A stretch of 64,000 nt of DNA from Pecten maximus (taxonomy: Eukaryota), in NCBI RefSeq assembly GCF_902652985.1, contig NC_047019.1:14318097-14382096 (forward strand). The letters run 5' to 3'. Below, in pieces: positions 1,507 to 60,790 of this stretch. The notes beneath the pieces are model-generated. The model made no database searches, was not told where the DNA came from, and saw nothing but the letters and a program-made list of their open reading frames with translations. The position numbers and the translations under genes are program-made. The number at the start of each line of letters is the position of its first letter. The stretch's first letter is position 1.

Positions 1507-2312
1507 GTAAGTCTAGCTGAAAATTTTCTGAATCAAATTATTTATATTATAAAACTAGATATCAAATAAGACAGTTAAATTGCTTTAACACTTTGAAAAA
1601 CACTTGAGATACAGGTTGTGTTTAATTTACAAGAAATGCTATAAGAACTCGGATACTATTTCCAAGGTATTGTTACTGTTCTATGTCCCATGGGTTTCTT
1701 TATAAAGTGAATTTCTATAAATATACACATATATAAAAGACTGCTATATAAAGCATTATTTTTTTTAAAGATATATGGCAGCCCCTGTACAAGTAAAGAA
1801 GCTGGAACCTGAATTGTTTACTATGCCGTTGAAGATGCAGAGTGCAACTGTGAGTTTATATGAATATCTAAATTTCACACTCTGGCCACCAATTAATACT
1901 GATTTATGTTTTAACATGGATTGGCATTCAATCAACTTGTTATTTATTAAAAAAATTTGTTAAAAAAATTGTTATTTGCAAGATTGTGTTCATGTTGACA
2001 ATACATAAAAATCTGATGGCTGTATGATAATGCTTAATTTATGCTTTTGAATTTTCTTATTACAATAAAACTTGCCTAATATGACCCCATAGGGTGAGTG
2101 ACCGTTTTGGTCACATTAGACAGGTTGTCAGAAAAGTCAAAGTTTTATGCTTTGAGAAAAAGCAGAATTTCACAGGAATATACATACAGTGTCAGATTTA
2201 GCAGGGTGTTGGAAAAGTCAGATGTCGTATTAGACAGATTTTACTGTATTAGAATAAACTATATATAGGATGTATACCAACATAAAAGTTTTCTAGATCA
2301 TATAATAGTAGA

Positions 2313-5300
2313 TATAACAATGTGTCCATTTCTCAGTTTCTGATGGACTATGTACTAGATATGACTGCGTGTCCATTTGTCAGACTCTGATGGACTATGA
2401 ACTAGATATGACTGCGTGTCCATTTGTCAGACTCTGATGGACTATGTACTAGATATGACTGCGTGTCCATTTGTCAGACTGATGGACTATGTACTAGATA
2501 TGACTGCGTGTCCATTTGTCAGACTCTGATGGACTATGTACTAGATATGACTGCGTGTCCATTTGTCAGACTCTGATGGACTATGTACTAGATATGACTG
2601 CGTGTCCATTTGTCAGACTCTGATGGACTATGTACTAGATATGACTGCGTGTCCATTTGTCAGACTCTGATGGACTATGTACTAGATATGACTGCGTGTC
2701 CATTTGTCAGACTCTGATGGACTATGTACTAGATATGACTGCGTGTCCATTTGTCAGACTCTGATGGACTATGTACTAGATATGACTGTGTCCATTTGTC
2801 AGACTGATGGACTATGTACTAGATATGACTGCGTGTCCATTTGTCAGACTGATGGACTATATACTAGATATGACTGCGTGTCCATTTGTCAGACTGATGG
2901 ACTATATACTAGATATGACTGTGTGTCCATTTGTCAGACTGATGGACTATATACTAGATATGACTGCGTGTCCATTTGTCAGACTCTGATGGACTATGTA
3001 CTAGATATGACTGTGTCCATTTGTCAGACTCTGATGGACTATGTACTAGATATAAGTGTGTGTCCATTTGTCAGACTGATGGACTATGTACTAGATATGA
3101 CTATGTCCATTTGTCAGACTGATGGACTATATACTAGATATGACTGTGTGTCCATTTGTCAGACTCTGATGGACTATGTACTAGATATGACTGTGTCCAT
3201 TTGTCAGACTGATGGACTATGTACTAGATATGACTGTCCATTTGTCAGACTTTGATGGACTATGTACTAGATATGACTGTGTGTCCATTTGTCAGACTCT
3301 GATGGACTATGTACTAGATATGACTGTCCATTTGTCAGACTCTGATGGACTATGTACTAGATATGACTGTCCATTTGTCAGACTTTGATGGACTATGTAC
3401 TAGATATGACTGCGTGTCCATTTGTCAGACTGATGGACTATATACTAGATATGACTGCGTGTCCATTTGTCAGACTGATGGACTATGTACTAGATATGAC
3501 TGCGTGTCCATTTGTCAGACTCTGATGGACTATGTACTAGATATGACTGCGTGTCCATTTGTCAGACTCTGATGGACTATGTACTAGATATGACTGCGTG
3601 TCCATTTGTCAGACTCTGATGGACTATGTACTAGATATGACTGTGTCCATTTGTCAGACTGATGGACTATGTACTAGATATGACTATGTCCATTTGTCAG
3701 ACTGATGGACTATATACTAGATATGACTGTGTGTCCATTTGTCAGACTCTGATGGACTATGTACTAGATATGACTGTGTCCATTTGTCAGACTGATGGAC
3801 TATGTACTCGATATGACTGTCCATTTGTCAGACTTTGATGGACTATGTACTAGATATGACTGTGTGTCCATTTCTTTGAGACTCTGATGGACTATATACT
3901 AGATATGACTGTGTGTCCATTTGTCAGACTGATGGACTATGTACTAGATATGACAGTGTGTCCATTTGTCAGACTGATGGACTATGTACTAGATATGACC
4001 GTGTCCATTTGTCAGACTGATGGACTATATACTAGATATGACTGCGTGTCCATTTGTCAGACTGATGGACTATATACTAGATATGACTGTGTGTCCATTT
4101 GTCAGACTGATGGACTATATACTAGATATGACTGCGTGTCCATTTGTCAGACTCTGATGGACTATGTACTAGATATAAGTGTGTGTCCATTTGTCAGACT
4201 GATGGACTATGTACTAGATATGACTATGTCCATTTGTCAGACTGATGGACTATGTACTAGATATGACTGTGTGTCCATTTGTCAGACTTTGATGGACTAT
4301 GTACTAGATATGACTGTGTGTCCATTTGTTTGAGACTCTGATGGACTATATACTAGATATGACTGTGTGTCCATTTGTTTGAGACTCTGATGGACTATGT
4401 ACTAGATATGACTGCGTGTCCATTTGTCAGACTCTGATGGACTATGTACTAGATATGACTGTGTCCATTTGTCAGACTCTGATGGACTATGTACTAGATA
4501 TGACTGTGTGTCCATTTGTCAGACTGATGGACTATATACTAGATATGACTGTGTGTCCATTTGTCAGACTCTGATGGACTATGTACTAGATATGACTGTA
4601 TGTCCAGTTGTCAGACTCTGATGGACTATGAACTAGATATGACTGTCCAATTGTCAGACTGATGGACTATGTACTAGATATGACTGTGTCCATTTGTCAG
4701 ACTGATGGACTATGAACTAGATATGACTGTCCATTTGTCAGACTGTTGGACTATGTACTAGATATGACTGTGTCCATTTGTCAGACTGATGGACTATGTA
4801 CTAGATATGACTGTGTGTCCATTTGTCAGACTCTGATGGACTATGTACTAGATATGACTGTGTCCATTTGTCAGACTGTTGGACTATGTACTAGATATGA
4901 CTGTGTGTCCATTTGTCAGACTGTTGGACTATGTACTAGATATGACTGTGTCCATTTGTCAGACTCTGATGGACTATGTACTAGATATGACTGTGTCCAT
5001 TTGTCAGACTGATGGACTATGTACTAGGTATGACTGTGTCCATTTGTCAGACTCTGATGGACTATATACTAGATATGACTGTGTCCATTTGTCAGACTGA
5101 TGGACTATGTACTAGATATGACTATGTGTCCATTTGTCAGACTGTTGGACTATGTACTAGATATGACTGCGTGTCCATTTGTCAGACTCTGATGGACTAT
5201 GTACTAGATATGACTGTGTGTCCATTTGTCAGACTCTGATGGACTATGTACTAGATATGAGTATGTGTCCATTTGTCAGACTGATGGACTATGTACTAGA

Positions 5301-5395
5301 TATGACTGTGTCCATTTGTCAGACTTTGATGGACTATATACTAGATATGACTGTGTGTCCATTTGTCAGACTCTGATGGACTATGTACTAGGTAT
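2313..5395. repeat. Intronic minisatellite, unit 43-47 bp (gtgtccatttgtcagactctgatggactatgtactagatatgactgc), about 68 copies
   Basis: Regular tandem periodicity with ct and gc indel variants. Confidence 0.95.
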
Positions 5396-5498: not shown

Positions 5499-5599
5499 TA
5501 TGAAGAATATGCAGAACCTTGTGATATGTATGGGGATGTTGATATGGAAGTGGAACAATCAGAAGCTGCTCAAGCTGAAATTGAAATATCATATGCTAT
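5499..5599 (+). CDS. Host gene exon: YEEYAEPCDMYGDVDMEVEQSEAAQAEIEISYA
   Basis: tgttgcag acceptor, GTAAGT donor at 5600; phase-consistent with downstream exons. Confidence 0.55.
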
Positions 5600-6188
5600 G
5601 TAAGTGTTCTGTATCATATGGTATGTAATAATTCTGTAATACATGACAGGTAAGTGCTCTGTATTACATGACAGGTAAGTGTTCTGTATTACATGCTAGG
5701 TAAGTGTTCTATATATCATGCTAGGTGAGTGTTCTGTATAACATGCTAGGTACATGTAAGTGTTCTGTATTACATACCAGGTAAGTGTTCTGTATTACAT
5801 GCTAGGTAACTAAGTGTTCTGTATTACATGCTAGGTAACTAAGTGTTCTGTATTACATGCTATGTAAGTGTTTTATAATACATGCTAGGTAAGTGTTCTG
5901 TATTACAAACCAGGAAAGTGTTCTATAAGTGTTCTGTATTACATGCTAGGTAAGTGTTCTATATTACATGCTAGATAAGTGTTCTGTATTACATGCTAGG
6001 TAAGTGTTCTATATTACATGCTAGATAAGTGTTCTATAAGTGTTCTGTATTACATGCTAGGTAAGTGTTCTATATTACATGCTAGATAAGTGTTCTGTAT
6101 TACATGCTTGGTAAGTGTTCTATATTACATGCTAGGTAAGTGTTCTATATATCATGCTAGGTAAGTGTTCTGTATTACATGCTAGGTT
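5600..6188. repeat. 25-bp minisatellite (gtaagtgttctgtattacatgctag), about 23 copies, starting exactly at the exon donor
   Basis: Every unit carries the GTAAGT donor consensus and ends in AG. Confidence 0.9.
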
Positions 6189-7248: not shown

Positions 7249-7553
7249 GTAAGTTTATATTAATTTACATTTTACATTTCAGTTTCAAATTCACTCTATG
7301 TTACTCTGCATGGTCCCTTTATTGATCATTGATACTAACAAGATGGCTTTTAGATTGATCATCAAATCTGAACTGCACACCCTTTAATATTCAGACCTGT
7401 TTGTGTGAGTTGTGCCAGCATTTGTTTTTAAAAAGTTTTTGTCTACCAGTAATCTTGGCTAGAAAATTCCCAGCGTTCTCTTGATTTTGATATAATCATC
7501 ACACTTTAAAGTACACATGTTTTGCTGTATAGAATAAGATGCCGGGGTAAACA

Positions 7554-8454
7554 CAAATGTAATGGGTGTACAAAAATGTAATGGGTATACGAAAATGTAA
7601 TGGGTATACGAAAATGTAATGGATATACGAGAAATGTAATGGGTATACAAAAATGTAATGGGTATACAAAAATGTAATGGTTATACGAAAATGTAATGGA
7701 TATACGAGAAATGTAATGGATATACAGAAATGTAATGGGTATACAAAAACGTAATTATACAAAAATGTAATGGGTGTACAAAAATGTAATGGGTATACGA
7801 AAATGTAATGGGTGTACAAAAATGTAATGGTATACAAAAATGTAATGGGTATACGAAAATGTAATGGGTATACGAGAAATGTAATGGGTATACAAAAATG
7901 TAATTATACAAAAATGTAATGGATATACGAGAAATGTAATGGTTATACAAAAATGTAATTATACAAAAATGTAATGGGTATACAATGTAATGGATATAAA
8001 AAAATGTAATGGTATACAAAAATGTAATGGATATACAGAAATGTAATGGGTATACGAAAATGTAATGGATATACGAGAAATGTAATGGATATACAAAAAT
8101 GTAATGGTATACAAAAATGTAATGGGTATACAGAAATGTAATGGGTATACAAAAATGTAATTATACAAAAATGTAATGGGTATACAAAAATGTAATGGAT
8201 ATACGAGAAATGTAATGGATATAAAAAAATGTAATTATACAAATATGTAATGGGTATACAAAAATGTAATGGGTATACGAAAATGTAATGGATATACAGA
8301 AATGTAATTGGTATACAAAAATGTAGTTATACAAAAATGTAATGGGTATACGAAAATGTAATGGATATACGAGAAATGTAATGGATATACAAAAATGTAA
8401 TGGGTATACAAAAATGTAATGGATATACAGAAATGTAATGGGTATACAAAAATG
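7554..8454. repeat. 19-21-bp minisatellite (aaatgtaatgggtatacra)
   Basis: Tandem units; the same array resumes at 16098-16215 on the far side of the LINE+satellite insertion. Confidence 0.9.
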
Positions 8455-8865
8455 TTCCGAGAGGATTACTACCTTGCCGTGGTCCGGAAGCTTGAGTGTT
8501 TCAATGAAACTTTGGGCTTTGCTGGCCAGAGCGTTATAAGTTCTTGTTAGGTCAAACCATGCCAGAGAGGTCAAAGTTGAGGAACCAGACCAAAAGTAAT
8601 CTAACCCAGTAGCTCAATTTTGAGCCAAACCATTTGCCGTGGTTTGCGTCCCGTAAATCCGGGGAAGAAGGTCCTGGTGGTTGAGTAATTTGGATGTTGA
8701 TTATAAATCATGCCAGTCTGCAACACACGACTTTGGCTTCAAACTCGGACTAGACGGGTGGCAATATGGTCCCTGTATTTTCAATCGGCTGGAGAACCAA
8801 ACTGCTGCTTTCTCTTTCGAGTATACTATTTTATGTAACCCTGACACTTTCGACACTGGAAACCC

Positions 8866-10251
8866 GTGCTAACAAAAGTGTCCCCTAGTTGGGCTCCGTG
8901 GTGGGTGGGGACAAAAATAGTGAACAACTTCTACATACATATGGGTACAAACGATCAAAATGACACAAAACGCAAAGGCGAGTCATCAAACACAACAGAC
9001 ACAGCACAAACAAAAACAATACCTAGTCAAACCTCACAAGCAAAAACTATACCAAATCAAACCCAAACTTCGATCAAAACTACATCTGGAACTGGAGCCT
9101 CTCCGCTGTTCCCTCACTTCCTAACCATGTCCTCCAGAGATAAGGGCAAGAAAACTTCCGAGTTATCACCCATCCTGTTGAGGAAGGGAATTCAGGGAAT
9201 AGCGGGTGAGGTAAAATCCATCAAGCCAATGAGATCTGGTATTCTCCTCATTGAGGTTTACCGCCGTCAACAGGCGATGAACCTCATGGGTACTTCCAGT
9301 TTTGCCGGTCTCAATGTCGAGGTGAAGCCCCATGCTTCACTGAATTCTTCAAAAAGTATAATCAGGTGCCCCGCATTGAACAACGACTCCGAGGCCGACA
9401 TACTGGAGTACTTCCAACATGTTGAGAACATCCATGTTTCGGAGGTTAGGCGGATCCGCTCCAGACGCAATGGTCAAACAATCAACACAAATACATTCAT
9501 TCTCACGTTCGGAGTGCCGCAGCTACCTCAGACGGTAACAATAGGTTACCAGAGGTACGGTGTCTCCGCCTACATCCCCAACCCTCTGCGATGCCGTAAC
9601 TGTCAAAAGTACGGACATCACGAGGACAGATGTGGACGGAACACTGTCTGCGAACACTGCGGACGTGAAGGCCACACAGACAACGACCAATGCAACATTG
9701 TTGGCAAGCGTTGTATAAACTGCCAGGGTGACCATGCGGCCTCATCTCGAGACTGTCCTGCCTGGAAGAAGGAGAGGGAGATCCTCCGGTTGAAATATAC
9801 CGAGAATATTTCCTTTCCTGAAGCCAGGAGGATTGTCGAGAGTAAGGACAGCACAAACCCCACGTTTGCCACAATTGTCAAACAGTCGACAGCACGTACC
9901 ATCTCGGTGAAGGATACCTCTATCCAAGCATTTGAGGACCAGTCTGCCTGGGGTCCAGATGCTCCCGAGATGGCAAACCTACCAAAATACAAACACTTAA
10001 TTGGGAGAGCCTCACGCTGGAGTGCCACCCCCAAACCTCCAGAGCCATCAAAACCCATACAACTCGCACCACCATCAATCGTACCATCGCCATCGAATAC
10101 AAAAACAATCGTAAACGAACGGAAATCTAAGACAGGTGCCGACCACCATAGACAACGAACTCTGTCACAGCCGTCGGTCGACACCTCCAGAATTACCAAG
10201 CGACCTAGCTGCCACTACACCCCCTCAAGATCAAAGAACACCAAAATCTAG
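8866..10251 (+). CDS. LINE ORF1, gag-like nucleic-acid-binding protein with 3 CCHC zinc knuckles
   Basis: CRNCQKYGHHEDRC, CEHCGREGHTDNDQC, CINCQGDHAASSRDC; the true start may be the internal Met near 8944. Confidence 0.8.
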   Translation: MLTKVSPSWAPWWVGTKIVNNFYIHMGTNDQNDTKRKGESSNTTDTAQTKTIPSQTSQAKTIPNQTQTSIKTTSGTGASPLFPHFLTMSSRDKGKKTSELSPILLRKGIQGIAGEVKSIKPMRSGILLIEVYRRQQAMNLMGTSSFAGLNVEVKPHASLNSSKSIIRCPALNNDSEADILEYFQHVENIHVSEVRRIRSRRNGQTINTNTFILTFGVPQLPQTVTIGYQRYGVSAYIPNPLRCRNCQKYGHHEDRCGRNTVCEHCGREGHTDNDQCNIVGKRCINCQGDHAASSRDCPAWKKEREILRLKYTENISFPEARRIVESKDSTNPTFATIVKQSTARTISVKDTSIQAFEDQSAWGPDAPEMANLPKYKHLIGRASRWSATPKPPEPSKPIQLAPPSIVPSPSNTKTIVNERKSKTGADHHRQRTLSQPSVDTSRITKRPSCHYTPSRSKNTKI

Positions 10252-10443
10252 GGTACGGATCAATAGGCATCCCTCCCTAAACAACAAACCGGCCAAGGGT
10301 TCAGATGACCCTATCCTTGGCTACAACAGGTATGGCGTTCTTATGGACGACAGTGAACAGCATATAACCAACGTTGCTGTTACTAGACAGCCTATACCAG
10401 GCATCCCTGTCAGTCCGAAGAACGACCAGCATGAACCAGGATA

Positions 10444-13400
10444 ATGGCCAATAATAGCAACACGATCATACAATGGAATATACGCGGACTACGGGCAAAT
10501 ATAGAAGAGTTTCAAAATTTATCTAAAGAGTTTAGACCTGCCTTATTTTGCCTACAGGAGGTCATGTTAAAAAAGCCAATTACCCTTAGAAATTTCTCGC
10601 TTTATAATAGCACCACAGCTATAGGAATCAAAGCAGCAGGAGGCGCAGCTGTAGCTGTCAATAAGAATATTCCTCACAGAATGATCACGTTAAACACAAA
10701 TTTACAGGCTGTCGCTGTATGTGCAACTTTACACAGACAAGTAACTGTCTGTTCAATTTATCTTCCTCCAAGTGTTGCTTTCACTAGTGAGCAACTGAAT
10801 AACCTCGTCTCTCAACTCCCAACACCATACATAATTCTCGGAGATTTTAATGGGCATAACAGCCTGTGGGGCTCTCCGAACACAGACGAGAGAGGAAGAC
10901 GTATTGAGGAATTTATAGATAAAAACAACTTGTGCCTGTTTAACAATAACACCCCAACATATTTACACCCTGCTACAGGCTCTTGTAACCACATAGACCT
11001 ATCACTATGCCACCAATCCATTTTTCTCGATTATGACTGGAAGGTTAATAATGATTTATGTGGGAGTGACCACTTCCCTATTTTTCTAAATAATATTGGG
11101 ACTCCTCTTGATAAACCACTTCCTCGATGGAATATGCACAAAGCGGATTGGGTCCAATTCCAACACATGTGCAACGAGGAGCTTACTGTAGAAAAACTAA
11201 CTAACCTTGATGGTTCATTTAAAACATTCACCAAAACTCTTACTTCTATTGGCGAAAAAACTATACCAAAGTCCGTTCCAAAACCTACAAAGTTTCTTCT
11301 ATCTGAAGAATCTTTTATTAATAGATCCGGCCGAAAGGCAGCTCTAAGACGATTTTTGACTTCCCCAACTGTTGAAAATTACAATAATTTTAAAATTTGG
11401 AGGGCAAAGGCTCGACGATCTATCAAATCCGATAAAAAGAATAGCTGGAAGGAATACGTTTCTAAAATATCTTCAAACACATCATCTTAAAAGGTATGGG
11501 ATCAATTGCGAAAAATAAGTGGAAAAAGAAAAACGGCACCATCATCCCACCTTATCAATAAAAAGCAAATTTTCTCTTCTATATCAGAAATTGCAAATGC
11601 ATTCGCCAAAAATATAGCCCAAAACTCATCGGCCAAAAACCACTCCCAAAAATTCCAACGATTTAAAAAAGAGAAAGAAAAGAAACGTCTTAATTTTAAA
11701 TCCTCCAACACAGAAAGTTACAATAAACCATTTGATCTCCCAGAGTTGCTTGAATCCTTAAACAAATCACAAGATTCGGCAGCTGGGCCAGATGAAATTC
11801 CGTACCAATTCCTAAAACATCTACCGGAATCATCTTTACGTTGTCTCCTTTATATTTTTAATCAAGTCTACGAATCAGGAAAGATCCCAGATTCTTGGAA
11901 GGAATCTACAATTATTCCAATTCCAAAACCTGGTAAGGACACCACTGAACCAAATAATTATCGTCCAATCTCTCTAACGAGCTGCATATGCAAAACACTT
12001 GAACGGATGATAAACACTAGACTAGTTTGGTTCCTTGAATCTAATAATATTTTGAGTCCACTCCAAAGTGGATTCAGAAACCGCAGAGGAACGGTAGACC
12101 ATCTGGTCAGGTTAGAAACCTTCATTCGAGAAGCTTTCGCGAAGAAGGAGCATCTAGTCGCTGTGTTCTTTGATCTGGAGAAAGCATACGATACTACATG
12201 GCAATATGGTATTATGAAAGACCTGCATGAAATTGGTGTACGTGGGAATCTCCCAAAATTCATCGCAAACTACATATCTGACAGACATTTTAAAGTTCGC
12301 GTAGGTTCAACTTATTCTGAAACAGCCAAACAGGAAATGGGAGTCCCTCAGGGTGGAATCCTTTCCGTAACACTTTTCGGCCTGAAAATCAACAGTATAA
12401 CTAAATGTCTCGGTAAGTCAACTGAAGGGTCTCTCTTCGTTGATGACTTCTTGATCTGCTATAGGTCAAAGAACATGCACACGATAGAACGACAACTTCA
12501 ACAATGTCTAGGCAAACTACAAACATGGGCAGATGAAAACGGCTTCAAATTCTCCAGATCAAAAACTGTCTGCATGCACTTCTGCCAAAAACGAAAACCA
12601 CATAATGATCCAGATCTAACATTAAATGGTATCAAAATTCCAGTTGTCGAGCAGACTAAATTCCTCGGACTAATTTTCGATTCGAAACTCTCCTTTGTTC
12701 CACATATAAAATACTTGAAAGATAAGTGCTCAAAGGCAATGAACATTTTACGAGTACTATCCCATACTGACTGGGGCGCAGACCGTGAAATGCTTCTGCG
12801 CCTTTATAGGACGCTTATTCGATCAAAACTCGACTATGGCTCCATCGTTTATGGATCTGCACGAAATTCTTACCTGCAGATGCTAGATCCTGTCCAAAAC
12901 CAAGGATTACGTCTGGTACTTGGTGCTTTTCGAACAACACCTGTGCAGAGCCTTTATGTAGAGGCAAATGAACCATCCTTAAATGACAGAAGGAAAAACC
13001 TTTCTCTTCAATATGCCGCCCAATTGAAATCCAACCCGAAAAACCCAGCTTTTGACCTTGTTGTCAATCCGCAATACCAAAACATATTTACTCAAAACCA
13101 AAAACTCATACCAACATTTGGCATTAGAATTTCTAACTTTCTTCAGGAACTTATCATAAGTTTAGACAACATAGGCAAGTACACCGTAACTGATGTACCG
13201 CCATGGCTTGTCAAAACACCTGATATTAACCTTACTCTACATGAGAGGGCAAAGTCGAGTGTATTACCCCAAGAGCACAAATCTTCCTTTCGGGAATGCA
13301 TTAAAGATTTTCACGTTCAGATCTTCACTGATGGCTCAAAAGATGGAGTAAAGGTCTCCGCAGCATGCTATTCCGATCGCCATTGCTCTTCAATCCGCTT

Positions 13401-13953
13401 ACCAGATGGTGCCTCTATCTTCTCTGCGGAAGCATGTGCCATCGATTTGGCCCTCGACCATATCGAAGAACAACGCATTAGAAAGGCAATAATTTGTTCC
13501 GACTCTCGATCTGTCCTTCAGAATTTACAATCACGAGATCCAAAGAATATACTCATACAAAACCTTGTTTTACGAATATCTCGTATCTTAAAAAAATGCA
13601 AAATAACACTACTTTGGGTTCCGAGCAATGTCGGAATTAAAGGCAACGAACTTGCTCTAAATCTGCAACAAACAAATATTAAAATACCATATACAGATTT
13701 CAAATCTGTAATTAGTTCTGCCATTCAGAGTAAATGGCAGCAACGCTGGTCTCTCGAGACGAGCAACAAACTTTTTAAAGTACAACCAAAACTTAAAACA
13801 TCAAAACCAAGTCGGAAGGATCGTAGAGAGGAAATAGTCCTCTCTCGGCTCCGTACCGGGCACACATATCCTACTCATTCGTTCCTTTTGAAACGAGAGG
13901 ACCCACCGGTGTGCTATGCATGTGATGCTCAATTCACAGTGGAGCATTTTTAG
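10444..13953 (+). CDS. LINE ORF2 (AP endonuclease, reverse transcriptase, RNase H); one in-frame TAA at 11488-11490 splits it into the 10444-11490 and 11506-13953 ORFs
   Basis: Both track ORFs are in the same frame (start coordinates ≡ 1 mod 3); the domain order is canonical; the C-terminal motif CYACDAQFTVEHF stops before the usual final Cys. Confidence 0.8.
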
Positions 13954-16077
13954 CCCACCATCATCAGATGGTGGGCTGTTCAAATCGCCCTGCGTCCGTG
14001 GTCCGTCCGTCCGTCCGGCCGTCCGTCCCTCCATCCCTCCGTCCGTAAACAATTTTTGTTATCGCTATTTCTCAGAAAGTACTGAAGGGATCTTTCTCAA
14101 ATTTCATATGTAGGTTCCCCTTGGTGCATAGTTATGCATATTGCGTTTTGAGACCAATCGGATAACAACATGGCCGACAGGCAGCCATCTTGGATTTTGA
14201 CAATTGAAGTTTGTTATCGCTATTTCTGAGAAAGTACTGAAGGGATCTTTCTCAAATTTAATATGTAGGTTCCCCTTGGTGCCTAGTTATGCATATTGCG
14301 ATTTGAGACCAATCGGAAAACAACATGGCTGACAGGCAGCCATCTTGGATTTTGACAATTGAAGTTTGTTATCACTATTTCTGAGGAAGTGCTGAATGGA
14401 TTTTTCTGAAATGTCATATATAGGTTTCCCTTGGTGCTTAGTTATGCATATTGCGTTTTGAGACCAATCCGAAAACAACATGGCCGACAGGCAGCCATCT
14501 TGGATTTTGACAATTGAAGTTTGTTATCGCTATTTCTGAGAAAGTACTGAAGGGATCTTTCTCAAATTTAATATGTAGGTTCCCCTTGGTGCCTAGTTAT
14601 GCATATTGCGATTTGAGACCAATCGGAAAACAACATGGCTGACAGGCAGCCATCTTGGATTTTGACAATTGAAGTTTGTTATCGCTATTTCTGAGAAAGT
14701 ACTGAAGGGATCTTTCTCAAATTTAATATGTAGGTTCCCCTTGGTGCCTAGTTATGCATATTGCGATTTGAGACCAATCGGAAAACAACATGGCTGACAG
14801 GCAGCCATCTTGGATTTTGACAATTGAAGTTTGTTATCACTATTTCTGAGGAAGTGCTGAATGGATTTTTCTGAAATGTCATATATAGGTTTCCCTTGGT
14901 GCTTAGTTATGCATATTGCGTTTTGAGACCAATCCGAAAACAACATGGCCGACAGGCAGCCATCTTGGATTTTGACAATTGAAGTTTGTTATCGCTATTT
15001 CTGAGAATGTACTGAATGGATCTTTCTCAAATTGCATATGTAAGTTTCCCTTGGTGCCTAGTTATGCATGTTGTGTTTTGAGACCAATCTGAAAACAACA
15101 TGGCCGACAGGCAGCCATCTTGGATTTTGACAATTTAAGTTTGTTATCACTATTTCTGAGAAAGTACTGAATGGATCTTTCTGAAATTTCATATGTAAGT
15201 TTCCCTTGGTGCCTAGTTATGCATATTGCGTTTTGAGATCAATTGGAAAACAACATGGCCGACAGGCAGCCATCTTGGATTTTGACAATTGAAGTTTGTT
15301 ATCGCTATTTCTGAGAAAGTACTGAATGGATCTTTCTGAAATGTCATATATAGGTTTCCCTTGGTGCTTAGTTATGCATATTGCGTTTTGAGACCAATCC
15401 GAAAACAACATGGCCGACAGGCAGCCATCTTGGATTTTGACAATTGAAGTTTGTTATCGCTATTTCTGAGAATGTACTGAATGGATCTTTCTCAAATTGC
15501 ATATGTAAGTTTCCCTTGGTGCCTAGTTATGCATGTTGTGTTTTGAGACCAATCTGAAAACAACATGGCCGACAGGCAGCCATCTTGGATTTTGACAATT
15601 TAAGTTTGTTATCACTATTTCTGAGAAAGTACTGAATGGATCTTTCTGAAATTTCATATGTAGGTTTCCCTTGGTGCCTAGTTATGCATATTGCGTTTTG
15701 AGATCAATTGGAAAACAATATGGCCGACAGACCGCCATCTTGGATTTTGATAATTGAAGTTTGTTATCTCTATTTCTCAAAGTACTGAATGGATCTTTCT
15801 CAAATGTCATAAGTAGGTTCCCCTTGGTCCCTTGTATTGCATTTTTGGACCAGTCTGTCCTGAAAACAACCTGGCAAACAAACAGCCATTATCGTTAAAT
15901 CTCAAATTTCTTATATAGCTAGGATTCCCTTGTTTGAAAAGTACTGGAGGGATGTCTCAATTTGCACAGATTAGTAAAATGAAGGGAAAAGTAGAGAAAA
16001 GATCAATCTGACATGGAACCTATGAAGATCATTCAATGGTGGGCGCCAAGATCCCTCTGGGATCTCTTGTTTAATAG
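13954..16077 (+). mobile_element. Satellite-carrier module abutting the LINE ORF2 stop: 5' palindrome agcccaccatc/gatggtgggct, GTCCGTCC repeats, a 155-bp satellite, and a 3' ...ctctgggatctcttgtt
   Basis: The 5' TAGCCCACC resembles the carrier 5' end TTAGCTCACC; the 3' tail resembles GGGCCTCTTGTT. Confidence 0.5.
14060..15790. repeat. 155-bp satellite, about 11 units, with a 465-bp (3-unit) higher-order repeat (HOR)
   Basis: The caattgaagtttgtt landmark recurs every 155 bp; identical minus-strand track ORFs at 14287, 14752 and 15217 lie 465 bp apart. Confidence 0.9.
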
Positions 16078-16097
16078 AATGTTCCGATTTCAAGCAC

Positions 16098-16215
16098 ATA
16101 TGGAAATGTAATGGATATACAGAAATGTAATGGATATACAGAAATGTAATGGATATACGAGAAATGTAATGGGTATACAAAAATGTAATGGTACACAAAA
16201 ATGTAATGGGCAATG
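16098..16215. repeat. Resumption of the 19-21-bp aaatgtaatggrtatac minisatellite
   Basis: Same unit as 7554-8454. Confidence 0.85.
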
Positions 16216-16668: not shown

Positions 16669-16763
16669 ACTGCGCCGTCTGAGGAGTCTGAGGATGACGA
16701 TATGGCGTTTGGACTGTTTGATGATGGCATGGATTTCAGATCGGAAAGGAAGGCGAAGCTAAA
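16669..16763 (+). CDS. Host gene exon: TAPSEESEDDDMAFGLFDDGMDFRSERKAKLK
   Basis: tgttacag acceptor; weak GTACAA donor at 16764; phase 0 in, 2 nt out, matching the next exon; acidic DDDMAFGLFDD motif. Confidence 0.5.
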
Positions 16764-17468: not shown

Positions 17469-18408
17469 GGATTCAGTAGATGACTTGTTAGATCTCTCAG
17501 CAGACTTGGAGACAGATACTATATACAGTGCACCTTTTTCTGCTTCTGAAATGCGCATAGGTCCCCCTCCCTCATCACAATCTGCCATGGCTTCTAGATC
17601 AGCAGGACTTCCTCCCCAACCTGCACAACCTGCCATGATGGCTCTTAAGTCAGCAGAATCTCGTCGACCTGCACAATCTTTCATAGCTTCTGAAAGAGCA
17701 GCACCTCCTCCACCTCCTCCTCCACCTTCAAAGCCTACCATGTCATATGAATTAGAGAAAGCTTCTCCTAAATTAGCAATGTTTGATGTAATGGCTGATG
17801 AATCAAGAGACCATCCTCCCCCAGTCCCACTTCTTGCCATGTCCAGAGGAGCTCCTCCACCTCCAGGAGGTCCTCCCCCAGTACCATTGAATGTCATAAA
17901 TAAAGGCGCACCTCCCCCAGTCCCTCTGTATGATACATTAGGAGGTAGTCCTCCTCCAATCCCACAAGGTCGCATGAGAGGTCTAGTAAGGCGAGGTATT
18001 GAACTAACCCCACATTCTGCAATTGCAATGAAATCCACAAGATCTCCTCCACAGCAGGCCAAGGATTTTACATCAGCCATTCCTCCTCCCCCACCTCCAC
18101 AGCAGGCCCAGGCTTTTACATCACCTATTCCTCCTCCCCCACCTGATCAACAGCAGGCCCAGGCTTTTACATCCACCATTCCTCCTCCCCCACCTCAACA
18201 GCAGGCCCAGGCTTTTACATCGCCTATTCCTCCTCCCCCACCTCCACAGCAGGCTAAGACTTTTATATCAGCAGGGTCCTCTCCCCCTAAGTCAGTATCA
18301 CAACCTCCCATCTTTGCCCGTAAAATGTCTTCCGAAAAGAATTCCTTCAAGAGTGATGCAAATGTATCCATTGCTGTGCCTCTATCTTTAGACTTGGACC
18401 TTCTTGAG
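17469..18408 (+). CDS. Host gene large exon of 313 codons: proline-rich, with polyproline blocks (GAPPPPGGPPPVPL) and four QQAQAFTSPIPPPPPP repeats
   Basis: ttttgtag acceptor, GTAGGA donor at 18409; track ORF 17485-18420; FH1/WASP-like profilin- or SH3-binding polyproline character. Confidence 0.7.
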
Positions 18409-18649
18409 GTAGGACTTTGAGATTTTGTTATTTACAATGTGCATACAAAAGTTACATAACATCTCCAGCATATGTAAGCTTAATTTGGATATACAGAATT
18501 TGTAATTGTCATCATGTTAAAATCATTATTTTAATATCATAGATTATTATTAACCATCTACTTCAATAAGCTGGTACTTACAGAATAATTTCTATGGACC
18601 AGTTTTAGAAAAATAAAACTGATTCTGGAGTCTTATGGACTTCCCTCAT

Positions 18650-21600
18650 TTGAAAAGTGTAATGAACTTTCTTCACACTCTAAGTGAATTGGACTTTCAT
18701 CATATTATAAACGTAGTGGCTTTCCCTCACATTATAAGTGTATTAGACTTCCCTCACATAATGTGTATAATGGACTTCCCTCACATTATATAAGTGTAAT
18801 GGATTTCCCTCACATTATAAGTGTATTGGACTTCCCTCACATTATAAGTGTATTAGACTTCCCTCACATGATACATGTAAGTGTATTGGACTTTCCTCAC
18901 ATAATAAGTGTATTGGACTTCCCTCACATTATAAGTGTATTGGACTTCCCTCACATAATAAGTGTATTGGACTTCCCTCACATTATAAGTGTATTGGACT
19001 TCCCTCACATAATATGTGTAATGGACTTCCCTCACATTATATAAGTGTATTGGACTTCCCTCACATTATAAGTGTATTGGACTTCCCTCACATAATATGT
19101 GTAATGGACTTCCCTCACATTATAAGTGAATTGGACTTCCCTCACATGATAAGTGTATTGGACTTCCCTCACATTATAAGTGTATTGGACTTTCCTCACA
19201 TGATTAGTGTATTGGACTTCCCTCACATTATATCAGTGTATTGGACTTCCCTCACATAATATGTGTAATGGACTTTCCTCACATTATAAGTGTATTGGAC
19301 TTCCCTCACATTATAAGTGTATTGGACTTCCCTCACATTATATAAGTGTATTGGACTTCCCTCACATAATATGTGTAATGGACTTTCCTCACATTATAAG
19401 TGTATTGGACTTCCCTCACATTATAAGTGTATTGGACTTCCCTCACATTATATAAGTGTATTGGACTTCCCTCACATTATAAGTGTATTGGACTTCCCTC
19501 ACATTATAAGTGTATTGGACTTCCCTCACATTATAAGTGTATTGGACTTTCATATTATAAGTGAATTGGACTTCCCTCACATTATAAGTGTATTGGACTT
19601 TCATCATATTATAAACGTAGTGGCTTTCCCTCCCTTTATAAGTGTATTGGACTTCCCTCACATTATAAGTGTATTGGACTTTCATCATATTATAAGTGAA
19701 TTGGACTTCCCTCACATTATAAGTGTATTGGACTTTCATCATATTATAAACGTAGTGGCTTTCCCTCCCATTATAAGTGTATTAGACTTCCCTCACATTA
19801 TAAGTGTATTGGACTTCCCTCACATGATAAGTGTATTGGACTTCCCTCACATTATAAGTGTATTGGACTTCCCTCACATTATAAGTGTATTAGACTTCCC
19901 TCACATTATAAGTGTATTGGACTTCCCTCACATTATATAAGTGTATTGGACTTCCCTCACATGATAAGTGTATTGGACTTCCCTCACATTATAAGTGTAT
20001 TGGACTTCCCTCACATTATAAGTGTATTGGACTTCCCTCATATTATAAGTGTATTGGACTTCCCTCACATGATAAGTGTATTGGACTTCCCTCACATGAT
20101 AAGTGTATTGGACTTCCCTCACGTTATAAGTGTATTGGACTTCCCTCACATTATAAGTGTATTGGACTTCCCTCACATTATAAGTGTATTGGACTTCCCT
20201 CACATTATAAGTGTATTGGACTTCCCTCACATTATAAGTGTATTAGACTTCCCTCACATTATAAGTGTATTGGACTTCCCTCACATTATAAGTGTATTGG
20301 ACTTCCCTCACATTATATAAGTGTATTGGACTTCCCTCACATTATAAGTGTATTGGACTTCCCTCACATTATAAGTGTATTGGACTTCCCTCACATTATA
20401 AGTGTATTGGACTTCCCTCACATTATAAGTGTATTGGACTTCCCTCACATTATAAGTGTATTGGACTTCCCTCACATTATAAGTGTATTGGACTTCCCTC
20501 ACATTATAAGTGTATTGGACTTCCCTCACATTATAAGTGTATTGGACTTCCCTCACATTATAAGTGTATTGGACTTCCCTCACATTATAAGTGTATTGGA
20601 CTTCCCTCACATTATAAGTGTATTGGACTTCCCTCACATTATAAGTGTATTAGACTTCCCTCACATTATAAGTGTATTGGACTTCCCTCACATTATAAGT
20701 GTATTGGACTTCCCTCACATTATAAGTGTATTGGACTTCCCTCACATTATAAGTGTATTGGACTTCCCTCACATTATAAGTGTATTGGACTTCCCTCACA
20801 TTATAAGTGTATTGGACTTCCCTCACATTATAAGTGTATTGGACTTCCCTCACATTATAAGTGTATTGGACTTCCCTCACATTATAAGTGTATTGGACTT
20901 CCCTCACATTATAAGTGTATTGGACTTCCCTCACATTATAAGTGTATTGGACTTCCCTCACATTATAAGTGTATTGGACTTCCATCACATTATAAGTGTA
21001 TTGGACTTCCCTCACATTATAAGTGTATTGGACTTCCCTCACATTATAAGTGTATTGGACTTCCCTCACATTATATAAGTGTATTGGACTTCCCTCACAT
21101 TATAAGTGTATTGGACTTCCCTCACATTATATAAGTGTATTGGACTTCCCTCACATTATAAGTGTATTGGACTTCCCTCACATTATAAGTGTATTGGACT
21201 TCCCTCACATTATATAAGTGTATTGGACTTCCCTCACATTATAAGTGTATTGGACTTCCCTCACATTATAAGTGTATTGGACTTCCCTCACATTATAAGT
21301 GTATTGGACTTCCCCTCACATTATAAGTGTAATGGACTTCCCTCACATAATAGGTGTAATGGACTTCCCTCACATTATAAGTGTATTGGACTTCCCTCAC
21401 ATTATAAGTGTATTGGACTTCCCTCACATTATAAGTGTATTGGACTTCCCTCACATTATAAGTGTAATGGACTTCCCTCACATTATATAAGTGTATTGGA
21501 CTTCCCTCACATTATAAGTGTATTTGACTTCCCTCACATTATATAAGTGTAATGGACTTCCCTCACATTATAAGTGTATTTGACTTCCCTCACATTATAT

Positions 21601-23212
21601 AAGTGTATTGGACTTCCCTCACATTATAAGTGTATTGGACTTCCCTCACATTATAAGTGTATTGGACTTCCCCTCACATTATAAGTGTAATGGACTTCCC
21701 TCACATAATAGGTGTAATGGACTTCCCTCACATTATAAGTGTATTGGACTTCCCTCACATTATAAGTGTATTGGACTTCCCTCACATTATAAGTGTATTG
21801 GATTTCCCTCACATTATAAGTGTATTGGACTTCCCTCACATTATAAGTGTATTGGACTTCCCCTCACATTATAAGTGTAATGGACTTCCCTCACATTATA
21901 AGTGTAATGGACTTCCCTCACATAATAGGTGTAATGGACTTCCCTCACATTATAAGTGTATTGGACTTCCCTCACATTATAAGTGTATTGGACTTCCCTC
22001 ACATTATAAGTGTATTGGACTTCCCTCACATTATAAGTGTAATGGACTTCCCTCACATTATATAAGTGTATTGGACTTCCCTCACATTATAAGTGTATTT
22101 GACTTCCCTCACATTATATAAGTGTAATGGACTTCCCTCACATTATAAGTGTATTTGACTTCCCTCACATTATATAAGTGTATTGGACTTCCCTCACATT
22201 ATAAGTGTATTGGACTTCCCTCACATTATAAGTGTATTGGACTTCCCTCACATTATAAGTGTATTGGACTTCCCCTCACATTATAAGTGTAATGGACTTC
22301 CCTCACATAATAGGTGTAATGGACTTCCCTCACATTATAAGTGTAATGGACTTCCCTCACATTATAAGTGTAATGGACTTCCCTCACATTATAAGTGTAT
22401 TGGACTTCCCTCACATTATAAGTGTATTAGACTTCCCTCACATTATAAGTGTATTGGACTTTCCTCACATTATAAGTGTAATAGACTTCCCTCACATTAT
22501 AAGTGTATTGGACTTCCCTCACATTATAAGTGTATTGGACTTCCCTCACATTATATAAGTGTAATGGACTTCCCTCACATTATATAAGTGTATTGGACTT
22601 CCCTCACATTATAAGTGTAATGGACTTCCCTCACATTATAAGTGTATTGGACTTCCCTCACATTATAAGTGTATTGGATTTCCCTCACATTATAAGTGTA
22701 TTGGACTTCCCTCACATTATAAGTGTATTAGACTTCCCTCACATGATAAGTGTATTGGACTTTCCTCACATTATAAGTGTAATGGACTTTCCTCACATTA
22801 TAAGTGTAATGGACTTCCCTCACATTATAAGTGTATTGGACTTCCCTCACATTATAAGTGTATTGGACTTCCCTCACATTATAAGTGTATTGGACTTCCC
22901 TCACATTATAAGTGTATTGGACTTCCCTCACATGATAAGTGTATTGGACTTCCCTCACATGATAAGTGTATTGGACTTCCCTCACATTATAAGTGTATTG
23001 GACTTCCCTCACATGATAAGTGTATTGGACTTCCCTCACATTATATGAGTGTATTATACTTCCCTCACATGATAAGTGTATTAGACTTCCCTCACATTAT
23101 AAGTGTATTGGACTTTCCTCACATTATAAGTGTAATAGACTTCCCTCACATTATAAGTGTATTGGACTTCCCTCACATGATAAGTGTATTGGACTTCCCT
23201 CACATGATAGAT
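18650..23212. repeat. 27-bp minisatellite (acttccctcacattataagtgtattgg), about 165 copies, 4.5 kb, intronic
   Basis: Strict 27-bp periodicity with 29-bp tatataagtg variants; produces long artifact ORFs on both strands. Confidence 0.95.
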
Positions 23213-40191: not shown

Positions 40192-41590
40192 TTAAGGATT
40201 TTTAGGTCACCTGAGACGAAGTCTCAAGTGACCTATTCTAATCGCCTTTTGTCCGTCGTCGTGCGTCGTGCGTCGTCCGTCGTGCGTTCGTAAACTTTTT
40301 ACATTCTCGACTTCTTCTCCAAAACCACTTAACAAAATTCAATGAAATTTGGCAGAAAGTTTCTATGGCTGAAGGTCAACCAAAATTGTGAATTATATGG
40401 TCCCCACCCCCCAGGGGCCTGAGGGGTGGGGCCAAAAAGGGTCAAATTGACTAAAACTTCAAAAATCTTCTTCTCTACTCTCAGATATGGTGGAGTCAAA
40501 CACTCTTTATAGATGAAAGGGTCTTGTGGTGCTTTACCAAAATTGTGAATTGCATGACCCTGGGGTCTCACGTTTGCCCCTGGGGAGGGGGTAAACTTTA
40601 CTATAGTTTATATAGGGAAATCACATTTTTGACTATTATTTGTTTGATTTGTATTGGAATTCATTCTAACTTGTATCAAATTATCGGCATGGGATGACAG
40701 TTTGATGGTATGTACATGTTGGCCCTAATTGACCCCCAGGGGCTGGTGGGCGGGGCCAAAAAGGGTCAAATTGACTAAAATTTCAAAAATCTTCTTCTCT
40801 ACTCTCAGATGTGGTAGAATCAAATACTCTTCCTAGATGGAAGGGTCTTAAGGTGCTTTACCAAAATTGTGAATTTCATGACCCTGGGGTCTCACGTTTG
40901 CCCCTGGGGAGGGGGTAAACTTTAGTATAGTTTATATAGGGAAATCACATTTTTGACTATTATTTGTTGGATTTCTATTGGAATTCATTCTAACTTGGTT
41001 CAAATTATCAGCATGGGATGACAGTTTGATGGTATGTACATGTTGGCCCTGGTTGACCCCCAGGGGCTGGTGGGCGGGGCCAAAAAGGGTCAAATTGACT
41101 GAAATTTCAAAAATCTTCTTCTCTACTCTCAGATATGGTAGAATCAAATACTCTTCATAGATGGAAGGGTCTTAAGGTGCTTTACCAAAATTGTGAATTT
41201 CATGACCCTGGGGTCTCACGTTTGCCCCTGGGGAGGGGGTAAACTTTACTATAGTTTATATAGGGAAATCACATTTTTGACTATTATTTGTTTGATTTCT
41301 ATTGGAATTCATTCTAACTTGGTTCAAATTATCAGCATGGGATGACAGTTTGATGGTATGTACATGTTGGCCCTGGTTGACCCCCAGGGGCTGGTGGGCG
41401 GGGCCAAAAAGGGTCAAATTGACTGAAATTTCCAAAATCGTCTTATCAACTATATGTTAGAATCAAATACTCTTCATAGACTGACCCCATTAGGACTGAT
41501 GGGTGGGGCCAAAAAGGGTCAATTTAGTTGGCCGAAATATTTCAAATCTCAGGTGACCGTTAAGGCCCTTTGGGCCTCTTGTTTCATTTT
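40192..41590 (+). mobile_element. Satellite-carrier element with about 3.3 units of a ~360-bp satellite
   Basis: 5' ttaggtcacctgagacgaagtctcaagtgacct hairpin plus gtccgtcgtcgtgcg repeats; 3' caggtgaccgttaaggccctttgggcctcttgtt; units homologous to 1-470. Confidence 0.55.
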
Positions 41591-54204: not shown

Positions 54205-54850
54205 ATGGGTAGTGTACGATACCGTCCACTGAGGAGTCATAGCCTATTAATAGAAACTGGACAGCATAGAAAAGTTCCTCACTATTTAAGAGTTTGTCCT
54301 TTCTGTAAAAATGACGTAGAAGATGAATACCATTTCATTTTAAAATGTCCCTCCTTTAACGGCCCCAGAATAAAATATATAAAGCCTCACTATCTGGTTA
54401 ATTCCTCTGTCAATAAGTTAATCAATTTACTATCAACCGGTAATGTTAAAGAATTAAGTAATCTGGGCAAGTTTTTATACCAAGCATCTTTACTACGTTC
54501 TACTCTGATGGCTTCTAGTGGTTTGACCCATATTATTCATTTACCTTTTTGAATCATATATATATATGCATGATATAGTGTCATATGCCAGTGCATTGCT
54601 CTACCCGAGCTGACTTGAATTATATTCTATGTTTGGTTTGGTTTGGTTTATTTTGTTTAACGTCCTATTAACATCTAAGGTCATTTAAGGACGGCCTCCC
54701 GTGCGTGCGACATGCATGCGTGTGGTGAGTGCGTATGTGTGTCCCGGGAGGCTGCGGTATGTTCGTGTTAAGTCTCCTTGTGATAGGCCGGAACTTTTGC
54801 CGATTTATAGTGCTATCTCACTGAAGCATACTGCCGAAGACAACCAGCAG
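54205..54850 (+). mobile_element. 3' fragment of another non-LTR retrotransposon: ORF2 C-terminal Cys/His motif region (54205-54552) plus a 3'UTR repeat (54625-54850)
   Basis: LRSHSLLIETGQHRKVPHYLRVCPFCKNDVEDEYHFILKCPSFNGPR matches the canonical ORF2 C-terminal finger; the downstream repeat recurs at 57835-58045(-) and 60650-60790(+). Confidence 0.5.
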
Positions 54851-57834: not shown

Positions 57835-58045
57835 TGTCTTCGGCAGTATGCTTCAGTGAGGTAGCACTATAAACCTGCAAAAGGTCCGGCCTATCACAAT
57901 GAGACTAAACACAAACATACCGCAGTCTCCCAAAACACACATACGCACTCACCACACGCATGCATGTCTCACGCACGGGATGCCGTCCTTAAATGACCTT
58001 GGCTGTTAATAGGACGTTAAACAAAATAAACAAACCAAAGTTCTA
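57835..58045 (-). repeat. Inverted copy of the 54625-54850 LINE-3'UTR-like repeat
   Basis: Reverse-complement match (ggcctcccgtgcgtgcgacatgcatgcgtgtgg core). Confidence 0.75.
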
Positions 58046-60649: not shown

Positions 60650-60790
60650 TTTTGTTTTGGTTTGGTTTCTTATTGTTTAACGTCCAATCAACAGCTAAGG
60701 GCATTTAAGGACGGCCTCCCGTGCGTGCGACATGCATGCGTGTGGCGAGTGCATGTGTTTTGAGAGGCTGTGGTATGTATACTATAGGTT
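60650..60790 (+). repeat. Third copy of the same repeat
   Basis: ggtttggtttcttattgtttaacgtcc...aaggacggcctcccgtgcgtgcgacatgcatgcgtgtgg. Confidence 0.7.

Follow-up and report, generated by a model that had tools for sequence, protein, structure and literature searches.

A nonsense codon in the ORF2 of a damaged LINE copy from the scallop Pecten maximus

Features of the locus

The DNA analyzed here, called the window below, is a stretch of 64,000 nucleotides from Pecten maximus (contig NC_047019.1 of assembly GCF_902652985.1, positions 14,318,097 to 14,382,096 of the forward strand). Its features are listed in Table 1 by their positions within the window. The region from 8456 to 16099 comprises one genomic copy of a bivalve APE-type non-LTR retrotransposon (LINE), and when the window was searched for further copies of this LINE none was found besides it. 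LINEs copy themselves by target-primed reverse transcription. A working member of this family is predicted to have two ORFs that meet at a TAATG junction, namely a ~499-aa ORF1 containing three CCHC knuckles and a ~1223-aa ORF2 that encodes an endonuclease, a reverse transcriptase and an RNase H in addition to a C-terminal Cys/His motif, followed by a 3'UTR with a terminal stem-loop and an AAAC-rich tail.

Table 1. Features of the LINE copy, its flanks and the element inserted in it (positions within the window)
Feature	Position	Strand	Remarks
19-bp minisatellite, ~49 units	7545-8455	.	5' flank of the LINE; Tandem Repeats Finder
LINE 5'UTR, element start at TTCCGAGAGG	8456-8940	+	Homology to L002 begins there
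ORF1 as now read, 436 aa, three CCHC knuckles	8941-10251	+	Early TAG from frameshift
4-bp insertion CTAG/TAGC, ORF1 frameshift	10205-10208	+	Gap in L002 at window position 10205
Displaced ORF1 C-terminal 77 codons, open in other frame	10209-10444	+	Ends with TAA at 10442-10444
TAATG, ORF1 stop overlapping ORF2 ATG, sequence intact	10442-10446	+	
ORF2 part 1, APE-type endonuclease domain and linker, 348 codons	10444-11487	+	Pfam
Nonsense codon TAA, A>T at 11488	11488-11490	+	Sister copies and family alignment
ORF2 part 2, reverse transcriptase and RNase H, 820 codons	11491-13950	+	Cut within C-terminal Cys/His motif
6-bp in-frame deletion	13310-13311	+	Pro-Asp lost relative to L001
AAT (Asn) in RNase H motif WxPSHxG	13627-13629	+	CAT in L001; His in 118/118 relatives
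21-bp in-frame deletion	13648-13649	+	Between two AACTTG direct repeats
Apparent ORF2 stop TAG	13951-13953	+	Last LINE T plus AG of the insert
Non-autonomous Helentron-type element (HINE), ~2.12 kb	13952-16069/71	+	Inserted in LINE ORF2
HINE 5' subTIR AGCCCACCATC	13952-13962	+	Perfect inverted copy 4 nt on, 13967-13977
HINE microsatellite (GTCC)n, also read (CGTC/GTCC)n	13993-14046		
HINE central satellite, 155 bp x 11.5 units	14055-15832		
HINE 3' subTIR ATGGTGGGC	16036-16044		Complementary to 13953-13961
HINE 3' palindrome AGATCCC-TCT-GGGATCT	16049-16065		
Last LINE ORF2 remnant AATAGAATGTTCCGATTTCAAGCACAT, ~30 bp	16070/16072-16099	+	Corresponds to L001 7732-7758
19-bp minisatellite, resumed	16100-16210	.	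After the broken LINE 3' end

A protein search returned 691 homologues, of which the full-length ones measure ~1224-1249 aa and are 50-55% identical. One protein (P0001) was 94% identical to the ORF2 protein of the window, and the contig that encodes it, NSIT01000129.1 (L001), holds a sister copy with 90% DNA identity over window positions 10211-13951. A scan of the metagenome contigs uncovered a second close copy, NSIT01000296.1 (L002), which is 95.8% identical from ~8455 up to the end of the contig at window position 12673; this identity spans the UTR, ORF1 and ORF2. Two close copies were thus found, with L001 alone covering the RNase H and C-terminal part, and searching for proteins similar to the 300 aa of the RNase H and C-terminus brought up no additional close copy, the best match being 44% identical. 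Both contigs belong to NSIT01, a metagenome of Pecten maximus (king scallop) gills made with ~2.2 million read pairs (PMC5772249). With so few read pairs, its host contigs are probably collapsed high-copy repeats. Other dispersed repeats of the window match L001 as well, with up to 98% identity. L001 has damage of its own, two 1-bp deletions and an ATG>GTG change, so the copies decay independently.

The simple-repeat 3' tail (AAAC-rich), seen in L001 only, is absent from the window copy. Both flanks of the LINE belong to one 19-bp periodic array, in which any phase of the junction imitates a target-site duplication of 0-18 bp. The copy has an odd shape, with a complete 5' end, no 3' end and a nested position within the minisatellite; most simply, its 3' part was lost by a later deletion.

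At the other extremity, the 5' end at 8456 is common to the window copy and L002. The 5'UTR lacks 76 bp at 8791/8792 that are present in both L002 and L001, and a stretch of 17 nt in the window corresponds to 92 nt in L001. ORF1, which starts with the ATG at 8941, follows the frame of both sister copies upstream of 10205, and the homologous peptide switches frame downstream of this point. The shift is caused by a 4-bp insertion absent from L002, and the earlier note on this DNA was therefore mistaken in calling ORF1 intact; it seems whole only because the frameshift sits downstream of the zinc knuckles. Removing the four bases in silico gave a 499-aa ORF1 ending in TAATG, as in L002. This sister copy is open throughout ORF1, the TAATG overlap and the first 743 codons of ORF2, and more distant relatives have ATGA overlaps between ORF1 and ORF2 or gaps of at most 20 nt. 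In the window, ORF1 now stops 190 nt upstream of the ORF2 start, and the TAATG overlap has been uncoupled by the frameshift.

ORF2 and its lesions

The earlier note had described two ORFs, 10444-11490 and 11506-13953, as lying in the same frame, and both the ORF list and the translation bore this out: 10444-13953 reads as 1170 codons, interrupted internally by one stop only, the TAA at 11488-11490, and closed by a TAG. The 15 bases from this TAA to the TTG that mechanically starts the second ORF are open. Given the base composition of the window, 1170 random codons should contain ~80 stops, against the one internal stop seen, which identifies 10444-13953 as a real coding sequence. Pfam searches of ORF2 detected Exo_endo_phos_2 (1.4e-23) and RVT_1 (5.9e-35), both over their curated cut-offs, as well as RVT_3 at 30.0 bits (cut-off 21.6) and RNase_H at 22.9 bits, slightly below its cut-off of 25.8. 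The RNase H domain lies downstream of the reverse transcriptase, and its DGS, AE and SDS motifs can be aligned with those of the relatives. By sequence, the nearest solved structures are that of the TRAS1 endonuclease (R1 clade; 6e-08) and, for the reverse transcriptase, that of LINE-1 ORF2p.

Apart from its nonsense codon, ORF2 had been taken to be intact, and this part of the earlier description did not survive comparison with the family. The full-length relatives, at ~1224-1249 aa, are longer than the window frame, and in 111 of 118 of them the protein runs exactly 45 residues beyond the last codon of the window. The missing 45 codons were cut off by the insertion of the HINE, with the break falling inside the C-terminal Cys/His motif, and the apparent terminal TAG is the junction of this insertion. 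An otherwise undamaged look, as if the element were one mutation away from intact, can mislead: what passes for the “natural” end of ORF2 comes from a transposon inserted there. Further upstream lie a 6-bp deletion, a His>Asn replacement and a 21-bp deletion (Table 1). The last removes seven residues, including the conserved Asp of the RNase H motif GNExAD; the Asp, Ala and Lys of this motif that are lost are 99-100% conserved in the family. When the Lys at the nonsense codon, both in-frame deletions and the 45 codons are put back, ORF2 reaches ~1223 aa, equal to the family length.

Beyond the insert, homology to the LINE resumes for only ~30 bp. The whole window was searched for the missing 3' part, and nothing was found beyond this remnant at 16070-16099. 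Some 109 bp of ORF2 are gone from the window, as is the 3'UTR of ~250 bp, including its stem-loop and its AAAC-rich tail. Across 304 columns that are at least 95% conserved in the family, the window departs privately in just four respects: the nonsense codon, the Asn in place of His, the loss of 21 bp and the missing C-terminus. Its 11 remaining departures are also found in the sister copies and are family traits. The private status of the 6-bp and 21-bp deletions was judged from L001, the sole copy covering that part, and both could already have been present in the source element.

Origin of the nonsense codon and age of the copy

The earlier note had suggested aligning the element with other copies of its family to see whether the interrupting codon is sense elsewhere. 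In this alignment both sister copies have AAA at this codon, the context being TCT TAA AAG in the window, TCT AAA AAG in L002 and TCA AAA AAG in L001. Among 118 full-length family proteins, the column of codon 349 holds Lys in 115, Asn in three and a stop in none, and polarization against L001 places the A>T change at 11488 on the window lineage alone. These three observations together indicate that the TAA arose as an A>T transversion in a conserved Lys codon. It would thus be an ordinary transversion in codon 349 of ORF2, acquired after the copy left the active lineage.

We consider it highly probable that the window holds a LINE copy that is young in its substitutions and multiply disabled, in which the TAA is an ordinary lesion with no recoding role. 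The lesions would number about seven, with at least six of them independent: the TAA itself, the ORF1 frameshift, the 76-bp deletion in the 5'UTR, the 6-bp deletion in ORF2, the 21-bp deletion with the accompanying His>Asn change, the 2.1-kb HINE insertion that truncates ORF2, and the loss of the 3' end.

One other explanation would put the T at 11488 down to an error of sequencing or assembly, the true codon being AAA and ORF2 being uninterrupted at this point. The base does lie at the boundary of a T-run and an A-run (TCTTAAAAGG in the window and TCTAAAAAGG in L002, that is, TCTT-AAAA against TCT-AAAAA), where a paired homopolymer length error can mimic a substitution. However, the window copy carries ~32 private substitutions in 2230 nt, far over any plausible residual error rate, and a real mutation at 11488 is for this reason much likelier a priori than a miscalled base. 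The other lesions do not resemble errors either, as they include a 4-bp insertion outside any homopolymer, deletions of 21 and 76 bp, an insert of 2.1 kb and the missing 3' end, and with such damage elsewhere there is no ground to expect an intact frame at 11488. An error at this base is accordingly improbable and, if true, would leave the copy non-functional all the same. Far less credible still is a programmed readthrough of the stop, a possibility raised in the earlier note, by which the element would make an endonuclease-only protein and a low level of an endonuclease-reverse transcriptase fusion, in the manner of retroviral gag-pol. The frame is open on either side of the TAA, and this is the only point that speaks for such a scheme. 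The stop is absent from L001, from L002 and from all 118 family proteins, with sense Lys in both sisters and in 115 of the 118. In eukaryotes, translation terminates efficiently at a TAA with A as the next base. When the 126 nt around and after the stop were inspected for a leaky context or a downstream structure, neither was found: the context is UAA-A and the folding energy of -17.3 kcal/mol is close to the shuffle mean of -15.7 (z = -0.55). The product of readthrough would, moreover, be without the C-terminal motif and without two RNase H residues, the Asp and the His, and would come from an RNA that has lost its 3' end. The resemblance to the gag-pol of gammaretroviruses (MuLV) goes only as far as a single in-frame stop between two functional parts of a polyprotein; unlike in MuLV, the stop is not conserved and has no stimulatory structure or context, and the family does not use readthrough. 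We therefore give this reading next to no weight.

The several structural lesions could also suggest an old and long-decayed pseudogene whose open frame is a coincidence. This is very unlikely, as one stop in 1170 codons compares with ~80 expected by chance, ORF2 has no frameshift, the identity with L002 is 95.8%, dN/dS values fall between 0.11 and 0.17, and at most 12 private non-synonymous changes are found in 743 codons. Between the ORF2 of the window and that of L002, dS is 0.11 and dN 0.012, giving a dN/dS of 0.11, and the ratio is 0.13 in the comparison with L001. Using L001 as outgroup, the 32 window-private changes in 2230 nt divide into 20 synonymous and 12 non-synonymous ones, the stop included, where a neutral ratio of ~1 synonymous to 3.6 non-synonymous would be expected. 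This 20:12 ratio argues that most of the divergence arose in active, selected lineages. From the substitution pattern, neutral decay after the insertion would amount to at most about 15 changes, or ~0.7%. Such an age is consistent with a single nonsense mutation and some four small indels over 5.5 kb. Among the options of the earlier note, that of a very young element with one disabling mutation thus stands for the point substitutions (dN/dS of 0.11, decay up to ~0.7%) and fails on the number of lesions, of which at least six are independent. The earlier note had also proposed that multiple additional frameshifts would make the element simply an old pseudogene; multiple lesions were indeed found, but the copy is not old.

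The strong purifying selection between copies and the presence of at least one open sister contig indicate that the LINE family was recently active. A stronger combined scenario would have the family currently active, with ORF2 translated by a putative UAAUG termination-reinitiation. The two in-frame lesions of RNase H would mark a sublineage that went on transposing in the absence of RNase H activity, and the window copy would be a very recent casualty whose odd shape, with its 5' end complete, its 3' end missing and a minisatellite around it, stems from a non-canonical insertion and not from a later deletion; taken jointly, these proposals seem unlikely.

Comparison with known elements and the inserted HINE

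By domain layout, the family comes closest to the RNase H-bearing clades of the I group (I, Nimb, Ingi, Tad, LOA). It shares with these LINEs an ORF1 with three CCHC knuckles, an ORF2 with an APE endonuclease, a reverse transcriptase, an RNase H and a Cys/His motif, and, in L001, a short 3' repeat of the AAAC type. The window copy differs from them in having lost its 3' end and its C-terminal motif and in its damaged RNase H. The junction of the two ORFs recalls SART1, the telomeric LINE of silkworm, for which PMC3894237 gives UAAUG as the signal of ORF1/ORF2 translational coupling (Kojima et al. 2005). TAATG joins ORF1 and ORF2 in L002, and the same pentanucleotide stands at 10442-10446 of the window, which by analogy makes coupling a putative feature of this family. 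The family would belong to a different LINE clade than SART1, the window copy is non-telomeric, and its frameshift would halt ribosomes 190 nt upstream of the junction.

The homology to L001 breaks at 13951 and picks up again at 16070-16099, and L001 thus provides the uninterrupted site of the insertion. The inserted element starts with AGCC and ends with CTCTTG(TT). At the site, L001 has a run of six Ts, of which five stand to the left of the insert in the window and one to the right if the element ends in CTCTTGTT. As the count of Ts then equals that of the L001 site, there was no target duplication, and 16071 was taken as the end of the element. An inverted-repeat scan of the insert was dominated by palindromes of the 155-bp satellite, and the arms of the terminal repeats were compared directly. 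A classical Helitron, with an A^T site, a 5'-TC and a CTRR-3' end, was considered for the insert and is contradicted by the AGCC...CTCTTG(TT) termini, the T-run and the subterminal inverted repeats.

The closest systems are the Cg_HINE elements of the Pacific oyster, which are satellite-carrying non-autonomous Helentrons with GTCC and GTCY microsatellites (PMC7492417), and, named beside them, DINE-1 of Drosophila (PMC4067079). Matched by architecture alone, the insert at 13952-16071 agrees with Cg_HINE (PMC7492417) in every substructure listed, namely a 5' subTIR with its complementary inverted repeat, a GTCC microsatellite, an array of ~155-bp units, and a 3' subTIR followed by a palindrome. 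It also shares with Cg_HINE an oligo-T insertion site without target duplication. The unit of the insert is 155 bp, and its array of 11.5 units may exceed the typical length of HINE arrays.

The findings at this locus show no departure from known LINE or Helentron biology, and their importance is mainly for the annotation of scallop transposons and little beyond. The presence of a HINE inside a young LINE copy indicates that satellite-carrying elements of the Helentron type have been mobile since that copy was inserted. At ~26996-28562 the window carries a further element, which shares the ends of the insert and, near 28540, its palindrome layout, and which has a 158-bp array.

Mosaic identity and lesions of the sister copy

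Identity between the window LINE and its sister copy in L001, a king-scallop gill metagenome contig (NSIT01000129.1), is not uniform along the element: it rises from ~70% in the body of ORF1 to ~90% in the ORF1 tail and ORF2, with the step at L001 3971 (window 10211), and over the final 650 bp of ORF2 it climbs once more, to ~98-99% (dS 0.05). Judged from the sequences, this stepwise pattern suggests recombination or template switching among LINE subfamilies. The first breakpoint adjoins the 4-bp insertion of the window copy. The sister copy is dead too, by lesions that differ from those of the window copy (L001 4201, 5263 and 5413): its ORF2 start has changed from ATG to GTG, and two 1-bp deletions separate EN from RT. 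The opposite strand of L001 also carries an RT fragment from another element (9151-9681).

Setting of the LINE and a repeat resembling its 3' end

The window LINE is enclosed by one 19-bp minisatellite, with its 5' end complete and its 3' end absent. This is the reverse of the usual LINE insertion, which is 5'-truncated, and we suspect that the 3' end was lost through a later deletion or exchange inside the minisatellite. A short dispersed repeat, with window and L001 copies 92-98% identical, ends in ~50 nt made up of a stem, GGCCGTCC...GGACG, and an AAAC-rich tail. The LINE 3' end in L001 is similar to these ~50 nt, and the part so resembled is the one missing from the window copy. The repeat may be a SINE, or its copies may be 5'-truncated relatives of the LINE that have its 3' recognition tail in common.

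Positions of the features (window unless marked L001)
Feature	Position	Sequence or structure
19-bp minisatellite	7545-8455; 16100-16210	
Short dispersed repeat	54642-54728 (-); 57949-58034 (+); 60661-60748 (-)	
Short dispersed repeat, L001	512-598; 8066-8120	
Second HINE-like element, left end	26996-28562 (+), whole element	AGCTCACC...GGTGAGCT
Microsatellite, after left end	27041-27071	(CGTC)n
Tandem array, same element	27128-28370	158-bp unit
Right end, same element		GGTGAGCG, palindrome AGGCCC-TCT-GGGCCT, terminus CTCTTGTT
Very large minisatellites	2309-5395; 18636-23209; 5593-6187	
~320-bp tandem repeat	137-547; 40408-41584; L001 1448-1773	
P-protein-like tail	16672-16725 (+)	APSEESEDDDMAFGLFDD
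48/99-bp tandem repeat	18046-18272 (+)	CCT- and CCA-rich

Other repeats and possible coding fragments

A second HINE-like element, flanked by TT, has an end architecture identical in kind to that of the HINE (non-autonomous Helentron) at 13952-16071. Tandem repeats are unusually abundant in the window, the very large minisatellites being, in the order of the table, one with a 45-bp unit (68 repeats), one with a 27-bp unit (168 repeats, 4.6 kb) and a third that is a 25/50-bp array. The ~320-bp repeat is shared with L001, its sites being 78-87% identical.

Downstream of a possible splice acceptor lies a sequence similar to the acidic C-terminal tail that is conserved in ribosomal stalk P proteins, but the reading frame continues beyond this tail; the stretch may represent an exon or part of a pseudogene. 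The 48/99-bp repeat, rich in proline-type codons, may be a repetitive coding exon.
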